This document shows positions 1,333 through 50,999 of a DNA stretch of 64,000 nucleotides, one piece after another (positions within the stretch are counted from its first letter, which is position 1; every line of letters starts with the position of its first letter). Made by a program: the position numbers and the translations under genes. The DNA comes from a virus. The DNA is taken from UHGV virus genome UHGV-0211472; one strand, 5' to 3'. The notes beneath the pieces were generated by a model. It did not search any database. It saw nothing but the letters and a program-made list of their open reading frames with translations, and was not told the DNA's origin.

Positions 1333-2367
1333 ATGGCGTATGGAATATGGACAACGCCAGTCGGACCGGGACCAGCTTCTCCGGCTGAGCTTTTTATTGA
1401 TAGTGATTCTACTTTCCCTCAATTCAAGAACAGGGTTAGTGGTAATTACAACTTTAATGGGGGTAGTAGAGATTTCCCTATTTCTGGATGGGATGGCTCA
1501 GGCCAAATCGTTGTAGTCCCCACCGGCTCTTTGTGTTGGCAATGGGAAGTCCCTCCTAATCTTGTCCCTGATGTGTATGTTGTAAACAATATCAGTATTG
1601 TAAATAACTCAACTTTCAGGGTTAGTATAAACATGAATCCCGGAAGTAATCCACTGTTTGACGTGGCTTTCAATGTATACCAAATATGGCCTAGAGCCAA
1701 TAGAAACTATGGTATAACCTTTTCAAACACAGCTGATTACTTCTCTATATCAGATGCTGGAGTTGTTGGTCAATGTATTTGGGCTTGGGAAGGAAACATT
1801 AATGGCTCTATGCAAATACCAGCAATCAGTGGTTTTGATATGTCTAGAGCTTCAGTGTTTGCTAACTGGTCTGGAGGACAAGGTTTACTCTATGATGCTG
1901 GGAGTCGTAATATCAGGGTTTACCAAAACAGAACCTATGATAACGGAAACAACAACCAAACAGGAACAATTAATAATGTGAGAGTTGCAGTGTTCTGTAA
2001 CGGGGCTGGTGTTCCTACTCACAATGGTGGATTAAACATATATTCACCTAATGGTTCTCAGTGTGTATTTTCTACTTACAGAACACCTTTTATGGTTGAT
2101 CGTTTTATGGCTATGAGTGGAGGGAATACTGGACTTACATATCCTATGATACCTCTGACGAACGGGGCAGGTTCTATTAGGGGTCAGGCGGGGAGTTGGT
2201 ATTTCCAACATGCTAGATCTCATACGATGAACGGCTCTTCTTTTGGTACAGGGTATGGTCGATATATGTTCCAGTGGGATAGAAACTACGATATGGGTGG
2301 TGGTGGGGCTATCTCCCTTCAGATTCCAGTCCTAGATGCTAGGAAGATTTTTAGAAGCATACAATAA
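1333..2367 (+). CDS. putative tail/structural protein (344 aa)
   Basis: start ATG 1 nt after the stop of the upstream gene (TAATATGG); Gly/Asn-rich, structural-module context. Confidence 0.5.
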   Translation: MAYGIWTTPVGPGPASPAELFIDSDSTFPQFKNRVSGNYNFNGGSRDFPISGWDGSGQIVVVPTGSLCWQWEVPPNLVPDVYVVNNISIVNNSTFRVSINMNPGSNPLFDVAFNVYQIWPRANRNYGITFSNTADYFSISDAGVVGQCIWAWEGNINGSMQIPAISGFDMSRASVFANWSGGQGLLYDAGSRNIRVYQNRTYDNGNNNQTGTINNVRVAVFCNGAGVPTHNGGLNIYSPNGSQCVFSTYRTPFMVDRFMAMSGGNTGLTYPMIPLTNGAGSIRGQAGSWYFQHARSHTMNGSSFGTGYGRYMFQWDRNYDMGGGGAISLQIPVLDARKIFRSIQ

Positions 2368-2376
2368 GGAGAACTT

Positions 2377-3159
2377 ATGGCAATTAGAATGGGTATAGAA
2401 GAATTAGACCCGATGGTTCAACAGGCTTCAAAGAAGTATGGTATACCAGCTGCTTTGATTCATGCTGTAATTCAAAGGGAGTCTAGTGGTCGTCCTAAGG
2501 TGGCTTCCGGAACTGGTCCTGTTGGTTTGATGCAGATCAGTAAAGGGTTAGCTAAAGATTACGGTTATAAACTAGAAGATAGGCTTGACCCAGCTAAGAA
2601 TATCGACATGGGTGCTCGCTATATCAGAGATAACCTTAAAGCTTTTAATGGTGATGTTAAGAAAGCAATGGTTGGTTATTCAGAAGGTATTGGTGGAGCT
2701 AAGCAGATGTTCGCTGGTAAAAGAGGGTTTACTCCTCAGGCTCTCGACTCTATGAATAATAAGCACTTCCTTCCTTTCTACGGTGATGCAGCTTCTCAGA
2801 TTGCTAACCCTATTGGAGCTTTACAAGCTATCCAACCAGTCAACCAGTTTAATCCTGACTTACTAGACAGAGAGAAAGCTGCACAAGCTCCAACTCAGGC
2901 GGAGATTGCTGCTTCTAAGACAGGAGCTTTAGGAGGTAATCCGGTAGAGTTTTACTCTGATGAAGTGCAGGAAGGGGAAGATCAGAAGCCTCAACAGAAC
3001 TTTGGTAATGCAGTATTAGGAGTAGCTGCTATGCTTGCTGGTAAACCTCCTACTTCTCAAACAGTTCAGAGGGCAAGTGCACCACATGCAGCAGGTTCTC
3101 AGTACAGTCCACAAACACAAGCAGTGCTTAGACGTTTGGCTAGCATTGGTGTAAAGTAA
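2377..3159 (+). CDS. lytic transglycosylase (SLT-domain) protein, probably virion-associated peptidoglycan hydrolase
   Basis: N-terminal motif ...IHAVIQRESSGRPKVASGTGPVGLMQI matches the SLT catalytic Glu-Ser...GLMQ signature; RBS AAGGAG; located between structural genes. Confidence 0.7.
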   Translation: MAIRMGIEELDPMVQQASKKYGIPAALIHAVIQRESSGRPKVASGTGPVGLMQISKGLAKDYGYKLEDRLDPAKNIDMGARYIRDNLKAFNGDVKKAMVGYSEGIGGAKQMFAGKRGFTPQALDSMNNKHFLPFYGDAASQIANPIGALQAIQPVNQFNPDLLDREKAAQAPTQAEIAASKTGALGGNPVEFYSDEVQEGEDQKPQQNFGNAVLGVAAMLAGKPPTSQTVQRASAPHAAGSQYSPQTQAVLRRLASIGVK

Positions 3160-3178
3160 TAATCTTTAAGGAGGACTT

Positions 3179-4231
3179 ATGTCTTTATTTGGAAAATCAG
3201 CTTCTAGCAAAACCACAGTGGCCCCTTCCTCTCAGGTTGATGCCCTGCTGAAGCAGATTGTTGCTAATGCTCAGAAGATGCAGAACAACGATCAGGGATT
3301 CATCTCCCAACAGCTGGCTGGGTTTAATAACAATCAACAAGGTGCTCTGAACAACTTATCAGCTTCTACAACTCAGAAGCAACTGGCTGACATGTACACA
3401 CCTCGTACACAGCAAGGGCTGGACCAACTTAACTCTCTTGCTCAACAGTATCAGAATATTGTCAATGGTGGTGGAGTGACAGCCGAGGGGGTTAATAACT
3501 TTAGTAAAGGGTTAAATAATTCTGCTCTTGCTCAAGCAACTAGTAAAGCAGCTTCTAATGTATCTCTCGGAAATGGTTCTGACTCAGGTTCTCTCCGTAG
3601 AGCTGCTGCTCAGGGTGCTGCTCTGAACGGTGCTAATACAAACTTAGCTCGTACTATCAGTGGTAAGAATATGGGAATCAGTGCCCTGCAACAAGACCAG
3701 AACTTCCAGAGAGGTTTGCTTGGTGCTCAGTCTGGTCTAGCTGGACAGAATCTCAATCTTGGTGCTCAAGGTGTTCAGGCAACTCAACAAGCTATTCAGA
3801 ATCAACTTATGGCTGGCAATCTACAACAGCAACAGGCTCAAGCACAAGCTGATATCAATTGGCAGAACGCTATTGGTTCTCAGCAGTACGGATGGAATCA
3901 GCTTAACAACCAACTTAATGTATTAAATAGTGTAAGCCCAATGGCTGGATATACAATTAAGAATGCCGCTCCGGGCGTTAACGTAGGACAACAGCTCCTA
4001 GGTGCTGGTATCACTGGTTTAGGTATTGCGGGTCGTATGGGTGCTTTCTCTCCTAACCAACAGACTCAGAATGCTTGGAGTTCATATAACAACTCGGGTG
4101 GGCAATCTGGAATGGCTGGTCCTATGATTGGAGGTTCTAATCTTTCTCAACAGAGGGGTCAGTCTAACTGGTTATCCACGGCAGGGAGTAATATCTTAGG
4201 TGGGGTCTTGGGGGCATTTGGAGCAAACTAA
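3179..4231 (+). CDS. Gln/Asn/Gly-rich structural protein (paralog A)
   Basis: RBS AAGGAGG; begins MSLFGK...; shares the GFNNNQ..ALNNL segment and overall Q/N/G-rich composition with the next ORF. Confidence 0.55.
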   Translation: MSLFGKSASSKTTVAPSSQVDALLKQIVANAQKMQNNDQGFISQQLAGFNNNQQGALNNLSASTTQKQLADMYTPRTQQGLDQLNSLAQQYQNIVNGGGVTAEGVNNFSKGLNNSALAQATSKAASNVSLGNGSDSGSLRRAAAQGAALNGANTNLARTISGKNMGISALQQDQNFQRGLLGAQSGLAGQNLNLGAQGVQATQQAIQNQLMAGNLQQQQAQAQADINWQNAIGSQQYGWNQLNNQLNVLNSVSPMAGYTIKNAAPGVNVGQQLLGAGITGLGIAGRMGAFSPNQQTQNAWSSYNNSGGQSGMAGPMIGGSNLSQQRGQSNWLSTAGSNILGGVLGAFGAN

Positions 4232-25600: not shown

Positions 25601-26158
25601 TTACATTTTCCAATATAATGAAGGTGGGTCGTAAGGGTCAAATCCTGTGAGTTCACACAAGTATTTATAAACCTTAACAGTTAAATTAACGTCCTGTTCA
25701 CAATAAGTAAACATATCCTCAGTGAAAGCATCCCATGCTTCCTCTTGCTCACCGTAATCACCTTTAAGTTCCCCTAAGAACTCACCCCATTGCTTCAAGC
25801 CATGACCTCTTGGGCCATGTCTAGGGTCGCCTTTCGGGTACTCAGGACTGTCACCAATACGGTCAGGTTTAAGATATCGACTAAGACATAAAGTGTCAAA
25901 GACGTTAAAACGATAGTTAATCAGATTGGGATACATCTTCTTCAGAGCACAAAGGTCGAAGTCAATAATATTGTGACCCACGAGCACATCTGCTTCTGTA
26001 AGTTTATGAATCCCATCTTCAATTTGGTGAGGCCGATAGCCCCACCTTTCACCAGTTTCAACATCGAAAACATAAATACACCATACTTTGGTTATATCAT
26101 CGTATAGTGCATTACTCTCAATATCGAATGCAAACACTTTCTTCTTTTTCTTTACCAC
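25601..26158 (-). CDS. DnaQ-like 3'-5' exonuclease (stand-alone proofreading domain of family A polymerase type)
   Basis: Exo I FDIES, Exo II HNIIDFD, Exo III YCEQD motifs; GTG start overlapping the upstream stop. Confidence 0.7.
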
Positions 26159-26712
26159 GGTGAAGCTCCATCTGCTTGGCTGACGAGAGAAGCTGCATCC
26201 TCTCCGTTAGTTAAAACGAATGGATTATCTTCATCAACTTCAAAGTCTTCCCTTTCTACAAGTCTACCGGTTTCACTGATATACTTAGTATAACAGACAC
26301 CTGTCTGACCGTAGTTACGTTCTTTCAGTAATCGAATGACTGAGAGGTTCTTAGCTAAGCCGTCAGCTTGCTTGTCACGCTCAAAGCCAATGATACACTG
26401 ACACCAACGCATAAGAGAACGAGAGCCAGTGAACTGTACTTCACGTACCTGTCCACCTTCTTCATGAGGAGCACCACCTGCCGGAGCATTAAGGTGAGAT
26501 AGCACGAAAGCGGTAAAGTCTAACTCTTTACACATACCAGCAAGCTCGGAAGCGATCTTACTGATTTCAGTGTTAATCTCTGAAGGTGTTAAATGAGATA
26601 CCAGAGCGGTAATGTTATCAAGGATGATAAATTTACACTGGTTTTCAACTACCCAGAAACGAATACACTGTTTAATGTCTTCCCATTCGTTTTGCAATAA
26701 TTCAATGAAGGA
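26152..26712 (-). CDS. primase-helicase, exon 2 (helicase C-terminal part)
   Basis: [33 protein letters not shown]... continues the T7-gp4-type helicase (H2 onward) in frame once the intron is removed; 5' boundary predicted. Confidence 0.65.
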
Positions 26713-26947
26713 CGCAACTCCTTCACCCGTAGCATTATATCTACTGCCCGTGGTTTCCCACGGGATTGGACTATATCATCACTCCTATTAAGGAGGCTAG
26801 GCGCTTCCACTAGCATTAGCTTCTAGTGTACTCCTTTCGGATAGTCTCTGCACTTTCTAGGATGTATCCTAGCTTAGCTCAGGATTGGCATATCTTTCGA
26901 CTTAGCTTTCCCTGAATTCACCTAGTTTTACTTCGGCCATTGTGTTA
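26713..26947 (-). ncRNA. group I self-splicing intron (ORF-less) within primase-helicase gene
   Basis: no ORF; begins with in-frame UAA; P1 pairing of exon end ACUUCGGU with intron GGCCGAAGU (terminal U-G wobble); R-like GCAGAGACUA and S-like GAUAUAGUCC; P9-like hairpin CCCGUGG-GAAA-CCACGGG; terminal G; boundaries uncertain by a few nt. Confidence 0.65.
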
Positions 26948-28195
26948 ACCGAAGTTGTCATACAAGAAGAATTTGTCTGCATAACGAAGTGCTTCATTAC
27001 GCAAATCCTCTTCATCATATTCAACATCAGGTCGGTGGAAAGGAATTGATGCTGACTTACCAGCGATGTTCTTAACAGACATGCCTACCTTCTCTTCCAA
27101 GAAGAAGCCACCCCCATTAAAACCATGTTCTAAGCACAGATGAGCAACAAGTTCGTGAGCAATTAGTGTTTTACCACTACCTACACCACCACCGATGGCT
27201 ACCACCTCTCCCCATCGAATACCGAAGGTCATCTCATTCAGAGTCTTCCACGGGTAGGGGATACCCCACTCCGCTTTCTTCAGAGCATCATCAAGACAAT
27301 CAAAGATTGTTACAGCTCCGGCAGGAGATTCCCGCTTTGCTGAATACTTGAGAATGTTGAATAACTCTTGACCGCGACCAGACAGAAGCATGTCATTCGC
27401 ATCCTTAATCTCTTTCTCCACACCGTTGTATGGGAAAGTTCCTTTAGGAATACGAGCAAACTTAACATGAGGGAATAAAGAACGACCTTTTGTTAAAGCT
27501 ATCTCACCTGCATCATCGTTGTCCATGCAGAGCACAACCTCCTCAAAACCATTTACGAAGTCTCGGTTACGAGACAACACAGAAGAGATTGAACCTGCAC
27601 CGAACGGTAAAGAAACACAGGCTGGTTTAATGTTTGTTGCATTTGTAAAAGCTGTAAGGACATGGAAACCAGACATACAAGATAGCGGGTCTTCAAAAAT
27701 GAACAGCTTCTTGTTGTACACGTCTCCCCGTTGAGCTTGTGCCATACCAAATAAATCTGCTTCTTTCACACTGCCGACGTAATAAAACTTCTTACTATCT
27801 AGCAGTTTAACCTCATATCCGACAATGTTTCCATCACGTTCACGAGGAAAGAAGTAACTGTCTGGTGTCTGACCATCAGTTTGACTGAGACCAATACGAC
27901 ACTCAAAACGCTCTGATACAGCCTTGGGAATTAAACGGCGAGTAAGTTCACCCTGAGGGAGTTCTAAGCAATCATCTAAGACTTCTCTCAACTCTTCAGG
28001 GGATAACTCTTTCTTCTCATTTGGAGTAGGTGTAGTGCCCTTTTCGAACACTTCGTAATTCCCACAACGGTTACAACTTCCCCACTCCTCACCGGTCTCT
28101 TCGTTACGGAAGAGAATCATGTGGTTGTGGGTTTTATCACGACCATGAGAGATACATTCCTTACAACCTGTGTCTCCCAAAATGATCTTTGACAT
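26948..28195 (-). CDS. primase-helicase, exon 1 (zinc-binding primase, TOPRIM, helicase Walker A)
   Basis: N-terminal Cys4 zinc ribbon (CKECISHG...CNRCGNYE), TOPRIM-like acidic motifs, Walker A GGGVGSGKT, ends ...KFFLYDNFG like T7 gp4 ...FHLYDSFA. Confidence 0.8.
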
Positions 28196-45548: not shown

Positions 45549-46448
45549 TTATGCTGCCTGACGTGCTGCCATAATTTCAGCCGCTTTGCGCAGTACTTCT
45601 TCCTCTTCTGCTTTCGCAGCTTGCTCGGTACGAGTAGCAACCGTTGAAGAGATACGACCGCGCAGACTTTCTAACTTCTCCTGCATAGCTGCAACAGCCT
45701 TTTCCATTTCATCAGCGTATGAATCAAGTGATTCCAATTCCTTGCTTGATGCGTTCATCAGGTAGTCATCAGAGATTGCTACCGTTGAGGCCGTGACTTT
45801 CTTGATGAGTGAATCAAAGGACTTTTTAACTTTGCCGACTTCTTCGCTCAGGGCAATAGTGTTATCACTAGTTGCGCCGTTGCGCTCATCAGCTAGTAAT
45901 TTAGCTTCAATACGGATTGCATTCAAGCGTTCAACCAAAGCGTAAATATCTTGGTTAAAATCTTCCTTGTTTTTCGCCGGGATTTGCAGGTGTGCCGCTA
46001 CGTTGTCGTTGCAACCTTTGTAGAAGTTAGGATTATCAACTTCAATTTCACGACCTAAAGCAAAGTTTTCGAAAGCGTTTGACCAGCGAGCGCGGTTTTG
46101 TTCCATTTTGGTCTTAATCTGCGCTTCTTTCGCATCTTCTTTCGCTTTCGCTTCACCTTCCAGATTAATCCACTTTTTACGACCATTTGCCGCATCGGTG
46201 TTAAACTTGATAGGGGTTAAGAAAGTGATTGCGGTAGCAATAACATCCATATCGCGGAAGCGTTCAGTTAACAGGAAATCAACCGCCGTCTGTAATACGT
46301 CCAGTTTCTTACCGTTGCTGCGGAAGTGCTGCAAATGACCTAACAGGAAGTTAGAAACATCTTGTTTGATCGCCGCGTTATTGCTACGAATGTTGTTAGC
46401 CAGAGCATTAAAACCGGATTCGTTAACCAGAGTAAAGATTTTAGCCAT
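45549..46448 (-). CDS. hypothetical early protein (about 299 aa)
   Basis: preferred start ATG 46448 with AAGGTG at 7 nt (track start 46457 is GTG); first gene downstream of the ORF-free region. Confidence 0.5.
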   Translation of the reverse strand: MAKIFTLVNESGFNALANNIRSNNAAIKQDVSNFLLGHLQHFRSNGKKLDVLQTAVDFLLTERFRDMDVIATAITFLTPIKFNTDAANGRKKWINLEGEAKAKEDAKEAQIKTKMEQNRARWSNAFENFALGREIEVDNPNFYKGCNDNVAAHLQIPAKNKEDFNQDIYALVERLNAIRIEAKLLADERNGATSDNTIALSEEVGKVKKSFDSLIKKVTASTVAISDDYLMNASSKELESLDSYADEMEKAVAAMQEKLESLRGRISSTVATRTEQAAKAEEEEVLRKAAEIMAARQAA

Positions 46449-47370
46449 GATATTCACCTTTCAATTGTAAGGGCACTTTGCCCCGCTCTCTATGAGCTTG
46501 CTTAAGTCACTATTAACTTAACTCTAACCACTCACTATTAAGTAGTTATAGGTAAGTGGAGCGGTCTTATCAGGAATTAACCTTGCCGCTCCCTTATCCG
46601 TGATGTTTCATCTGGTATCTTTAATTAGTCGCTATAAACAAAGCCGACCTGATAGCGATGATCAATCATCACAATAAGGCAGTGCGTCCGACTCTAATTA
46701 GTTACGTTATTGTAACCGTCGGCAATATCGTCTACTTTGCTTTCGCTCTCGCCTATCCTTTTGTATCAACTCTCAATCGCTAGTCATCGCCCACTACGGG
46801 ATACTATTGCGAAAGAGTCATTGACCGTCTAATATTCCGACGTTTTATATCTTTCAGCGAGTTTACTACATAAACCGACTATGTACTTTCATCATGAGAT
46901 GAATCTCAAGCCGTTCACATTGTAAACGTTCACACTAAACCTTATTGTTAAATAGCAATTTGCCACTTTTTAACCACTCCCCGCCGCTCTCAATTGAGCG
47001 TTAATTCGTCGGACTTATCTACCCTGATTAACTTCTTTCACCGTAGCGCCTTGTTAGCGATGACCGCCGCTACCCTTAACCGTGGGCGATTAGCTTAAGT
47101 CGATGCGTGCACTCGATGAATCTGCTTATCAGTGGTGATGTTTCCAGTAAGGGATTGTAAGGCTGTTTTCTCTGATAGTTTAGAGAGTCTTACACCGTTT
47201 TATCTGGTATGCTTTCCGATGGTTATTATCATCAAGCATATTCAACCGATATAGGAGAACGTTTAAATTGTTAAAGAGCGGTAAATCTATCAGCGCGCTT
47301 TCTCACGCTATGCAACTGTTAGCCGTTGTTACGCTATTCACTGAAGCGGTGATTTGCTTAAGTGATGCTC

Positions 47371-47703
47371 ATTATGAATCATGTTGTTTTAGCTGTCAAC
47401 CACTTTTTTAATCTTTTTCGTCGTTCCCGTTATTGGGAGGATATACCAATCAGCTTTATTCGATTGGAGATTAAGCGGTAAGGCTTAACTTATGATTCAT
47501 ATTTTTAAAGAGCGGTTACTACATTCACAGCTTAACACATCGTGTTAGCTTGTCAACTCTTTTTATCATCTTCTTTGAATTCCTTTCCCTTATCTCGCGT
47601 GAATCTCTGCGAAAGGGCAAGATGATAAGTTTTTAAAGAGCAATTGCAAGTTTCCTTGCTTTGTTTCTGATACCCATCTTACTACATTTGGGCATCTTGT
47701 CAA
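47371..47703 (-). promoter_or_regulatory. cluster of three tandem sigma70-like promoters on the minus strand
   Basis: three perfect TTGACA -35 boxes (plus coords 47394-47399, 47551-47556, 47698-47703), each preceded by an A-tract (AAAAAG); copy 1 has -10 CATAAT at 17-nt spacing, copy 3 TAAGAT at 16 nt; copy 2 -10 is weak. Confidence 0.4.
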
Positions 47704-48061
47704 TCTTTTTATTTCTTATCGATTACCTGTTTTTCGTACGACTTATCAGGTTGTCTACTTGGCACTGCTTAACCGATGAATAGATAATAGTGGAAGTGAG
47801 GGAGGAAAGCAACACTTATTTTGATTATTTTCAGGGAAGGAAGATATAAAAGAACGCGCACGCGAATAACATACTAAAACAGGCTTGTAAAGCACTAGTT
47901 GACGCTCTCAGACGCATCACAACGAGCTAAAAGGAAGTAAGGCATACAATCACCTTATAAAAGAGAAAAGCCTCACTAGGAGGCTTACAGGAAGGATTAG
48001 AGAATCAGATAGATTATGACCATAGGCATGACTACGGCACAATACAGGAGAAAGATTAAGC

Positions 48062-48427
48062 CTATGGATTTACACATTGACCGTTGCCGGATTTTATTTC
48101 GTTCATAGACTCGTCAAAGAGCGTCAACGACGAGCGCAACAAGTGATCGACCGTAATTTGTTTGCCAGTGGTTTCGTTAGTCATATAGATAGACTTGTCA
48201 TAGACTACAACACTCTCAAAATCTTCTACATGTAAAATAATAACTTTAGGTGACTGTTTACCAGTTTCATAATCTTCTATCAAATAGGTGCACTGTAGAC
48301 CTTCGATAGTATCAGGTGTGAACGTTGCAGCCTTCACACTACCCATAGACGATAGCAGGACACCTAACAGGAGAACAACAAGGAAGAAGCCTACAACCGT
48401 TTTAACGACGAATTTAATAAACCACAT
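48062..48427 (-). CDS. secreted or membrane-anchored protein (121 aa)
   Basis: N-terminal hydrophobic signal/anchor FIKFVVKTVVGFFLVVLLLGVLLSSMGSVKA. Confidence 0.45.
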   Translation of the reverse strand: MWFIKFVVKTVVGFFLVVLLLGVLLSSMGSVKAATFTPDTIEGLQCTYLIEDYETGKQSPKVIILHVEDFESVVVYDKSIYMTNETTGKQITVDHLLRSSLTLFDESMNEIKSGNGQCVNP

Positions 48428-49767: not shown

Positions 49768-49808
49768 GATTGATTCCTTTAGTTGGTATGCTTCGTTTCA
49801 ATGAGATA

Positions 49809-49837
49809 ACTATACTTCTTACTACACAACAAGTCAA
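49809..49837 (-). promoter_or_regulatory. sigma70-like promoter (minus strand)
   Basis: minus-strand TTGACT (49832-49837) - 17 nt - TATAGT (49809-49814) with AT-rich upstream region. Confidence 0.5.
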
Positions 49838-50129
49838 CAACTAATTTTAATTCTTTTATGATTCACGATGTAGCCTGAGCAACCGCAGTTCTCAGAGAGC
49901 CATTACTCACTTGGCTTCTCCAGTGACCCGATAGTGTTCCAGCCTTAGCCAGTCAATCGCGGAGTCCTTACATCTAATCACTTTCCACTACTTAGGACGA
50001 TTATCCTTCATGGAACCTACTACTATCTAGCTACTTGGTATCGCTACTTCGCTTCGATGAATACAATTTACTACTTCTTACTAAGGAAAGCAAGCGCTAC
50101 GGGTAAAATATTTCTACTATCTATATAGG

Positions 50130-50572
50130 ACGGGGAGATAACAACCGCAGGACAGACCACGGGGAAGGGTAGCCAGATAGTGCGGTAATAATATACCACT
50201 TAAATAATTGTATAACTCAAACATCAAAGACCGTTCGTACTACGTACTCACCATTCGCTACGCTCATGTACGCTGAAAAAGAAAGTAATAAAAGAATATA
50301 ATAAACATCAAACATAATCTTTCCACTTAATTAATACATACATCATTATTGCACTCATAATAACAACTATTGAAACTATTATCAACGTAACTATGGGGGC
50401 TTGTGACTGTTACTCATGGGCATTATATCGCCTTAATCTATTGGTACAGTGGAAGACCATTATCAGTGCTAGCCTTTCATCCATTCAGTAAAGGGGAACT
50501 AAATAAACGGGTAGGTAATGAATAGGATGGTATACACGGGGAAAGAATAACGGGGAGTAGGCACGGGGAAGG
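50130..50572. repeat. iteron-like direct repeats ACGGGGA(A/G), five copies in two clusters
   Basis: copies at 50130-50137, 50160-50167, 50536-50543, 50550-50557, 50563-50570 inside the ORF-poor divergent control region. Confidence 0.5.
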
Positions 50573-50999
50573 TTGGAACGTTGAAAGGGAAGGTAAAGGC
50601 ATTCCCATATGAGCTTTTTTAAATGAGGACTCCCCTTTTTTAGGAAACGCGCGGAAGCTGCCTAGCCCCACTCGGTCAAATTGAAATTTTAAACTGTTAT
50701 ATATAAGCTTGATAACTTTATTACGGGGTTGGATACTACACATGAAGTAGTTCACTACGTTCAAGTAGCCTTAACGTGACATAGCCTTTATGGGAGTGCC
50801 TTAATGTGAGGTCCCCTTTATGTCTTAACTTTATCAGAGGGATTTATGACTGAAGATGAATATGGTAGCTTCTCTGAAGAAGACTACGAAAATGAATACA
50901 GGTATGCTCACGGGTATTAATGTGAGGAGGCCTTTACGGGTAGGTAGTCATCAGAGAAGATGATGTGCCCTTTATACTTTCTACTCAGAGGAAAATAAT

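Follow-up and report, generated by a model that had tools for sequence, protein, structure and literature searches.

A folded leader RNA behind promoter-boxA cassettes in the probable early control region of a Kuravirus coliphage

Introduction

The boxA element, whose gamma-proteobacterial consensus is GYTCTTTAANA (PMC5725501), precedes long untranslated RNAs in the ribosomal RNA (rrn) operons and in clustered regularly interspaced short palindromic repeat (CRISPR) arrays (PMC7665894). At suhB, it lies near the Shine-Dalgarno sequence and helps to occlude it (PMC7665894, PMC5725501). In phage T7, boxA sits downstream of promoters A0-A3 and is a functional anti-termination element whose mutation makes gp2 dispensable, as recounted in a passage of PMC3709561 that cites Savalia 2010. 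Here, we describe a comparable arrangement in a 64,000-nucleotide (nt) stretch of UHGV virus genome UHGV-0211472 (hereafter the window). In a segment without sizeable open reading frames (ORFs) at 46458-48061, read on the minus strand, each of three predicted promoters (P1-P3) is followed by a boxA, and a folded leader RNA of roughly 900 nt lies between P1 and a homologue of phiEco32 gene 124.

Large structured RNAs have themselves been met in phages; GOLLD, ROOL and HEARO are several hundred nt long, contain many covarying helices and occur in a phage or prophage context. The original prediction for this segment proposed tandem early promoters driving a structured non-coding RNA or tiny ORFs, and also considered a replication origin or genome termini. 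Its first proposal is supported by our analysis, through promoters published for the phages SU10 and phiEco32 and through covariation in the downstream 0.9 kilobases (kb).

Results

A conserved leader without coding signal

Similarity places the window among the Kuravirus (phiEco32-like) coliphages. With 46300-48200 as a megablast query, we obtained 98 phage records at about 92% identity, every one from the phiEco32 group (Gordonclarkvirinae, comprising Kuravirus and relatives) and with E. coli or Shigella as host. In the phiEco32 reference, the match at about 92% identity covers 72638-74844 and the counterpart of the segment is 72787-74730. Genes 124 and 125 enclose it there as a gap without annotation, about 2.8 kb short of the linear genome's right end, and most relatives' records carry no annotation there either. 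The ORF desert reported earlier is real: no ORF of at least 60 amino acids (aa) overlaps 46458-48061 and the longest has 47 aa. At 1604 nt, this is the largest ORF-free gap in the window, the runner-up being 709 nt long (49768-50476).

Between the predicted P1 start and the AUG of the gp124 homologue lies a non-coding, conserved and structured leader RNA of about 917 nt (46449..47365, minus strand). Its conservation was measured in a 5.6-kb alignment of 20 phages, in which 46449-47370 aligns nearly gap-free and is almost fixed in length. Mean diversity is 0.117 in the leader vs 0.163 in the adjacent gp124 coding sequence (CDS; 0.10, 0.06 and 0.33 at codon positions 1, 2 and 3). The divergent phage SU7, with a gp124 protein 79.5% identical, retains 88% nt identity across the leader and P1-P2, the initial 1184 nt of the ORF-free query.

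This conservation is not that of a protein. Variable sites are spread over the three phases as 119/127/130 in the leader (p = 0.77) and as 84/52/242 in the gp124 CDS (p = 2e-36), and no 150-nt block of the leader has codon periodicity. The few indels in the leader are of 1, 2 or 4 nt, and hence frame-breaking. Together, the missing periodicity and the frame-breaking indels exclude coding on either strand, and with it the suggestion of tiny ORFs in the original prediction. The record of phage CHD5UKE1 has 10-11 hypothetical proteins, from ORFs of 29-49 aa, at 1854-3444 (approximately window 46650-48040). Because the substitution pattern carries no coding signal, we judge these to be probable gene-caller artefacts, and annotators should be warned that tiny 'hypothetical proteins' in this gap are spurious.

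The leader is constrained to fold

The fold was analysed in 25 sequences in RNA sense, with pairwise identity down to 75%, and compensatory changes are visible by eye in their alignment. The consensus fold contains 245 pairs in 40 helices, with 99.1% of cells paired. Compensatory double changes occur at 75 of the 245 pairs, compared with 33 +/- 3 in shuffles (none of 500 reached 75) and 6-11 when the partners were slid; the covariation score is 0.218 vs 0.03-0.055 for slid partners. The same fold-and-count procedure gave 75 pairs at -242 kcal/mol for the sense strand, 47 at -157 for the antisense strand and 7 at -79 for a CDS control, which was the adjacent 900 nt from 24 of these 25 sequences (391 vs 405 variable columns). 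A structure derived from the window sequence alone and scored on the other 24 had 69 compensated pairs vs 18 for the CDS, and 69% of changed cells remained paired under it vs 38%. Single-sequence minimum free energy z-scores were -5.8 (sense), -3.0 (antisense) and -0.9 (CDS). As the 25 sequences are related, and kinship can inflate shuffle-based statistics, we place the main weight on the slid-partner, antisense and CDS controls. The substitutions accepted among these relatives show that the leader is maintained as an RNA under base-pairing constraint on the minus strand.

At its 5' end, the model has a hairpin, followed by a boxB-like hairpin and boxA1. Next comes domain I (46969..47267), closed by helix 6, which pairs 47267-47255 with 46981-46969, and containing helices 7-19. 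Domain II (46671..46948) is closed by helix 21, pairing 46948-46939 with 46680-46671, and contains helices 22-31. Half-buried in the hairpin between them (helix 20, 46950..46968) is a pseudo-boxA (46946..46968), UGCUAUUUAACAA, invariant in 25/25 sequences, with the critical C of position 4 replaced by A. The 3' part is a hairpin series, helices 32-40 (46470..46670), which includes the GGAGCGG/CCGCUCC hairpin of the original prediction. That hairpin is real (helix 35, 5/7 pairs compensated), but its coordinates had been off by one and are 46558-46564/46586-46592 (whole hairpin 46558-46592). The downstream part had also been called GC-richer, which is only modestly so (about 42% vs 38%).

No terminator was found between the leader and the gp124 homologue, and a scan for transfer RNAs and transfer-messenger RNA (tmRNA) in the region found none. 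The Rfam covariance-model scan proposed with the original prediction matched no family in the region at the gathering threshold (including GOLLD, ROOL, HEARO, OLE, group I/II introns, 6S and tmRNA). At E <= 10, the best match scored 24.8 bits vs a threshold of 90, and all matches were to implausible small nucleolar RNA or small RNA models.

Three predicted sigma70 promoters

The three minus-strand TTGACA hexamers noted earlier are present, as are the -10 elements assigned to copies 1 and 3. P1 (47371..47408) consists of an A-tract, a -35 TTGACA at 47399-47394, a 17-nt spacer and a -10 CATAAT at 47376-47371, and transcription from it would start near 47363-47366. P2 (47529..47564) has AAAAAG, TTGACA at 47556-47551, a 16-nt spacer and a weak -10, TAAGCT, at 47534-47529, which is better in several relatives (TAGAAT, TATAAT or TAAGAT). 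P3 (47676..47710) has the A-tract AAAAAG at 47710-47705, TTGACA at 47703-47698, a 16-nt spacer and TAAGAT at 47681-47676. Scored as sigma70 promoters (-35 and -10 at 16-18 nt spacing, on the strand of the downstream genes), P1 matches at 11/12 positions and P3 at 10/12, and P2 has a perfect -35. Across the 25 sequences, the -10 hexamer of P1 is invariant and its -35 hexamer nearly so.

The combination AAAAAG-N1-4-TTGACA occurs at three sites on both strands of the 64 kb, exclusively at P1-P3, with 0.08 expected and 0/100 shuffles reaching three; TTGACA by itself is, if anything, rarer in the window than expected. The promoter array itself is already known from predictions in SU10 and phiEco32. 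For the homologous spacer, the SU10 paper gives three sigma70 promoters, 'like phiEco32' (PMC4281155), and P1 and P2 match the promoter sequences of its table S2 nearly base for base. Promoters for the phage sigma factor gp36 (tAATGTAtA) have no match in the region, and their window-wide counts equal chance; the AATGTAGTAA strings near P2 and P3, which we considered as gp36-sigma promoters, fall short of the consensus. Pavlova and colleagues are said to have described, in 2012, early-infection transcripts starting at these phiEco32 promoters.

A boxA after each promoter

Among the direct repeats listed in the original prediction, TTAAAGAGCGGT holds, being present at 47271 and 47505 and imperfectly at 47633, while the other listed repeats are weak. 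On the transcribed strand, it reads ACCGCUCUUUAA, a boxA of the rrn/T7 type (GCTCTTTAAMA), which had not been recognised. We regard this repeat as the key mechanistic element of the segment. The minus strand has three exact matches to GYTCTTTAANA, at 47279-47269, 47513-47503 and 47641-47631, one after each promoter; both strands of the rest of the 64 kb contain one further match, and 0.5 are expected window-wide.

The copy after P3, boxA3 (GCUCUUUAAAA, 47631..47641), has 18/20 identity with its flanks (47642-47623) to the boxA of the E. coli rrnB leader. After P2, boxA2 at 47503..47513 is again GCUCUUUAAAA. The copy after P1 with its flank (GCUCUUUAACAAUUUA, 47264..47279) is identical at 16/16 positions to the E. 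coli rrnB leader (GCTCTTTAACAATTTA), and 47280-47267 (CGCTCTTTAACAAT) is identical at 14/14 to the T7 boxA (T7 812-825). This boxA1 lies inside AGATTTACCGCTCTTTAA, the longest invariant run in the 20-phage alignment. Every one of the 23 genomes scanned (the window and 22 relatives) carries 3-5 sense-strand copies. Two positions are fixed across relatives, at about -830 and -1065 from the ATG, and the remaining copies fall in the indel-rich upstream part, many of them with a TTGACA promoter 43-122 nt upstream.

A boxB-like hairpin, GCAAG-GAAA-CUUGC, can be read 4 nt upstream of boxA3 (47646..47659). Another, helix 4 of the fold with the loop AGAAAG, stands about 13 nt 5' of boxA1 (47292..47309) and has compensatory changes at 3/6 pairs. 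The order of boxB then boxA at boxA1 and boxA3 is that of rrn; for boxA2, no boxB-like hairpin is evident in transcripts starting at P2. By analogy, boxA would act here as a Nus-factor anti-termination site.

Related cassettes in other phages

Upstream of P3, a 37-nt element (47724..47760, minus strand) is 95% identical to T7 552-588 in the same orientation relative to early transcription, and the block has 95-97% identity to T7, 13a and T7-like phages of Klebsiella and Salmonella. In T7, it abuts the -35 of early promoter A2, whereas here 20 extra nt precede P3; P3 and A2 share the -10 TAAGAT. The block suggests that unrelated virulent phages have exchanged promoter modules, or that they share a site for a host factor.

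Serratia phage Slocum, which is T5-like, has at 1460-1525 a near-consensus sigma70 promoter (TTGACA-17-TAAGAT) followed directly by AGATTCACCGCTCTTTAACAATTT, which is nearly the Kuravirus boxA1 and its flank and is located in the pre-early terminal-repeat region. Only short matches (19-22 nt) of high E-value to the boxA segment were seen in two T7-like phages, Klebsiella phage P67_1 (718-739) and Vibrio phage VEN (679-697). Many virulent enterobacterial phages may carry such promoter-boxA cassettes in their early regions.

Distribution

The P1-boxA1 segment was recovered at no less than 80% query coverage from 98 phage records, the same number as have a gp124 homologue. In IMG/VR, the gp124 protein found five loci, all Kuravirus, and an invariant 16-mer found the same five plus chance matches. 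A metagenome scan with an invariant 18-mer returned 36 matches, seven of them real relatives. Outside the phiEco32 group, IMG/VR and the metagenomes yielded only Kuravirus-like contigs. As far as we searched, the folded RNA appears restricted to the Gordonclarkvirinae of E. coli and Shigella.

Genome context

The neighbouring genes all lie on the minus strand, so the promoters point toward the gp124 homologue, which is the first gene in a long early operon. Comparison with relatives places its true start at the AUG at 46448, preceded by the Shine-Dalgarno sequence AAAGGUGA (46461-46454). The CDS encodes 299 aa (phrog_13018; 45549..46461 including the Shine-Dalgarno sequence, minus strand), in which no Pfam domain was found.

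On the other side of the promoters, a terminator scan found an intrinsic-terminator-like hairpin, AAGCCUCCUAGUGAGGCUU, with a U-rich tail (47958..47986, minus strand). Terminators are annotated at the homologous place in SU10, SU7 and 4E8, and this hairpin is the predicted terminator of the upstream operon (homologues of genes 128-125). The part from 47650 to 48061 is an indel hotspot among relatives, in which promoter-boxA cassettes have been gained, lost or swapped; SU7 and PAS59 have a 66-aa ORF there. In 5' to 3' order, the segment consists of the terminator, a variable spacer, three sigma70 promoters with UP-like A-tracts and a boxA each, the 917-nt untranslated RNA and the ribosome-binding site. 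No tandem repeats or iterons were found in the region, and its dispersed repeats are weak except for boxA.

The gp125 homologue (121 aa, 48062-48427, minus strand) is called 'terminase' in many records and in phrog_13168. Its N-terminus is a hydrophobic signal- or transmembrane-like segment, MWFIKFVVKTVVGFFLVVLLLGVLLSSMGSVKA, and it has no Pfam match; the label looks like a propagated mis-annotation. Further away, Rfam RF00028 (86 bits, E = 1e-20) identifies a group I intron at 26747-26957 (minus strand), flanked by a 416-aa ORF (26945-28195) and a 181-aa ORF (26152-26697) with a weak DnaB_C helicase match. The intron probably interrupts a primase- or helicase-type replication gene.

Alignment of the phiEco32 right end covers window 50130-50654, with homology ending near 50654-50663. 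The joined physical genome ends thus fall within the window, and the segment is about 3 kb inside the right end. The joined ends, where the 193-bp terminal repeat is positioned, adjoin the ORF-free gap at 49768-50476.

Discussion

We read the segment, on the minus strand, as the principal region controlling early transcription in a Kuravirus phage, and give this reading, including the mechanism proposed here, a probability of roughly 75%. Where transcripts start, what boxA does and whether a stable RNA species forms we infer from the sequence. On entry of the DNA, host RNA polymerase with sigma70 would start at P1-P3. As in rrn operons, CRISPR arrays and T7, the nascent boxA RNA would bind NusB-NusE, and with NusA, NusG and SuhB the polymerase would then become a fast, Rho-resistant complex. 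Such a complex could carry transcription through the long untranslated RNA and on into the early operon; at 917 nt, the untranslated transcript is of the kind that Rho would otherwise attack. The boxA complex may also help long-range helices to form, as for 16S rRNA. As to the fold itself, our leading guess is that the leader stabilises and gates the early mRNA, through its 5' hairpin and a pairing of the boxA flank with the Shine-Dalgarno sequence, or that it is released as an abundant non-coding RNA. We would tentatively rank a cis-acting leader above a released trans-acting RNA, and that above a replication pre-primer.

Several observations weigh against this picture. Both sides of the predicted long-range helix, in which the 5' flank of boxA1 pairs with the Shine-Dalgarno region, are invariant, so that the helix shows no covariation. 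The leader RNA contains more G than C and is heavily paired, and Rho may act on it poorly even if boxA is absent. For this reason, boxA may serve speed, the co-transcriptional folding of long-range helices or the downstream operon as much as the leader. By direct reading, none of the three boxAs is followed by a GU-rich boxC like that of rrnB (UGUGUGGG). In the related phage 7-11, the early end lacks boxA, and the arrangement is hence not general among phiEco32 relatives; boxA as an explanation of the anti-termination postulated for phage 7-11 was dropped on the same ground. Finally, a search of the full-text literature found no Kuravirus non-coding RNA or boxA, although the primary phiEco32 papers were outside that search and may mention boxA or the gap.

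If the RNA instead worked apart from the operon, it could be a trans-acting RNA for host takeover or anti-defence that occupies a host protein as a decoy or sponge. Possible targets are Nus factors, ribosomal proteins, RNases and components of restriction or defence, and the RNA would be present before any of the phage proteins encoded beyond P1-P3. Transcription from the strongest early promoters would reach this sequence first, selection on its fold spans the three genera named for the subfamily, and several boxA copies could titrate NusB/NusE. The Gordonclarkvirinae are also reported to be unusually resistant to restriction and defence systems, with no known inhibitor (PMC11990801), which such an effector RNA would help explain. 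Yet no 3' end or terminator marks a separate RNA, it has no Rfam similarity, and it has no strongly repeated sponge-like loop motif, only modest enrichments (UUACAAU four times, ACUUAAGC three times). The idea is also entirely inferential. A protein-independent effector of 0.9 kb, produced abundantly as the first product of the main early array and acting as a decoy for a restriction or defence component, or for Nus factors or ribosomal proteins so as to stop host rRNA synthesis, thus strikes us as possible but unlikely. Somewhat less likely again is a transcript-primed replication origin in the manner of ColE1 RNA II or T7, in which a folded pre-primer RNA would form an R-loop and prime phage DNA synthesis. 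Such an origin would fit the largest non-coding stretch in the genome, with its strong promoters and a conserved folded RNA containing G-rich conserved segments (GCGGCGGGG), and to our knowledge the origin of these phages has not been mapped. It fits poorly with the absence of DnaA boxes, iterons or tandem repeats in the region, and with a GC-skew turn that lies not at the segment but near 49-50 kb, where the direction of transcription flips. The RNA also passes straight into the ribosome-binding site and operon with no terminator or break, and boxA implies a read-through function.

The two remaining explanations seem to us far less probable than either of these. That the region encodes several tiny proteins, as in the CHD5UKE1 record, would agree with the ORFs of 25-47 aa on both strands, some of which are annotated in GenBank. 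We regard this as very improbable, given that there is no codon periodicity, that indels are of 1, 2 and 4 nt and that changes preserve base pairs instead; most records also leave the region unannotated. A genome terminus, terminal repeat or packaging site is the least credible of all. It was suggested by a long non-coding stretch close to one end of the reference genome, but the termini of the original prediction turn out to lie about 3 kb away. The physical ends of phiEco32 and SU10 carry 193-bp terminal repeats (PMC4281155), and the region is internal in linear records.

Under the favoured reading of an anti-terminated early control region, two features appear to be new: the boxA after each promoter, and the folded leader of about 900 nt as an RNA family; the kind of boxA is known from T7 and rrn. 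An RNA of this size supported by covariation would rank among the largest structured non-coding RNAs known in a coliphage. The rRNA-style promoter and boxB/boxA cassette suggests that the host's machinery for ribosomal anti-termination and RNA chaperoning is put to use by virulent phages in making a large folded RNA. With a similar cassette in the T5-like pre-early region and in T7-like phages, Nus-factor hijacking may extend beyond the single case of T7. Gordonclarkvirinae are common coliphages and therapy candidates, reported to be little studied (PMC11990801). They also have a tractable host in E. coli K-12 with restored O-antigen, on which the BASEL phages Bas86-94 should make genetics, SHAPE (selective 2'-hydroxyl acylation analysed by primer extension) and cryo-electron microscopy straightforward.

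Comparison with known systems

T7 and Kuravirus are otherwise unrelated, yet the T7 early region is a close parallel. Both have three tandem strong sigma70 promoters (A1, A2 and A3 in T7), A-rich upstream, near a genome end, and both have boxA on the transcript followed by an untranslated leader before the first gene (0.3 in T7). T7 has a single boxA after A3, whereas here there is one per promoter. The T7 leader is at most about 430 nt, with about 100 nt from boxA to gene 0.3, compared with 830 nt of covariation-supported structure after boxA1. The E. coli rrn leader likewise has tandem strong promoters with A-tracts and a boxB-like hairpin followed by boxA, and a long structured untranslated RNA with long-range closing helices lies downstream. 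Unlike rrn, with its boxC, the segment has none that we found, its RNA is non-ribosomal and the transcript would enter protein-coding genes.

CRISPR arrays share a consensus boxA upstream of an unusually long untranslated RNA, where it counters Rho (PMC7665894), and the predicted pairing of the boxA flank with the Shine-Dalgarno sequence recalls suhB. In contrast to both, the setting here is a virulent phage with several boxAs and a single complex fold in place of repeats. In size, covariation and phage context, the leader resembles GOLLD, ROOL and HEARO, with their Rfam models unmatched even at the relaxed threshold. Unlike those RNAs, it is a 5' leader physically joined to the operon that it precedes.

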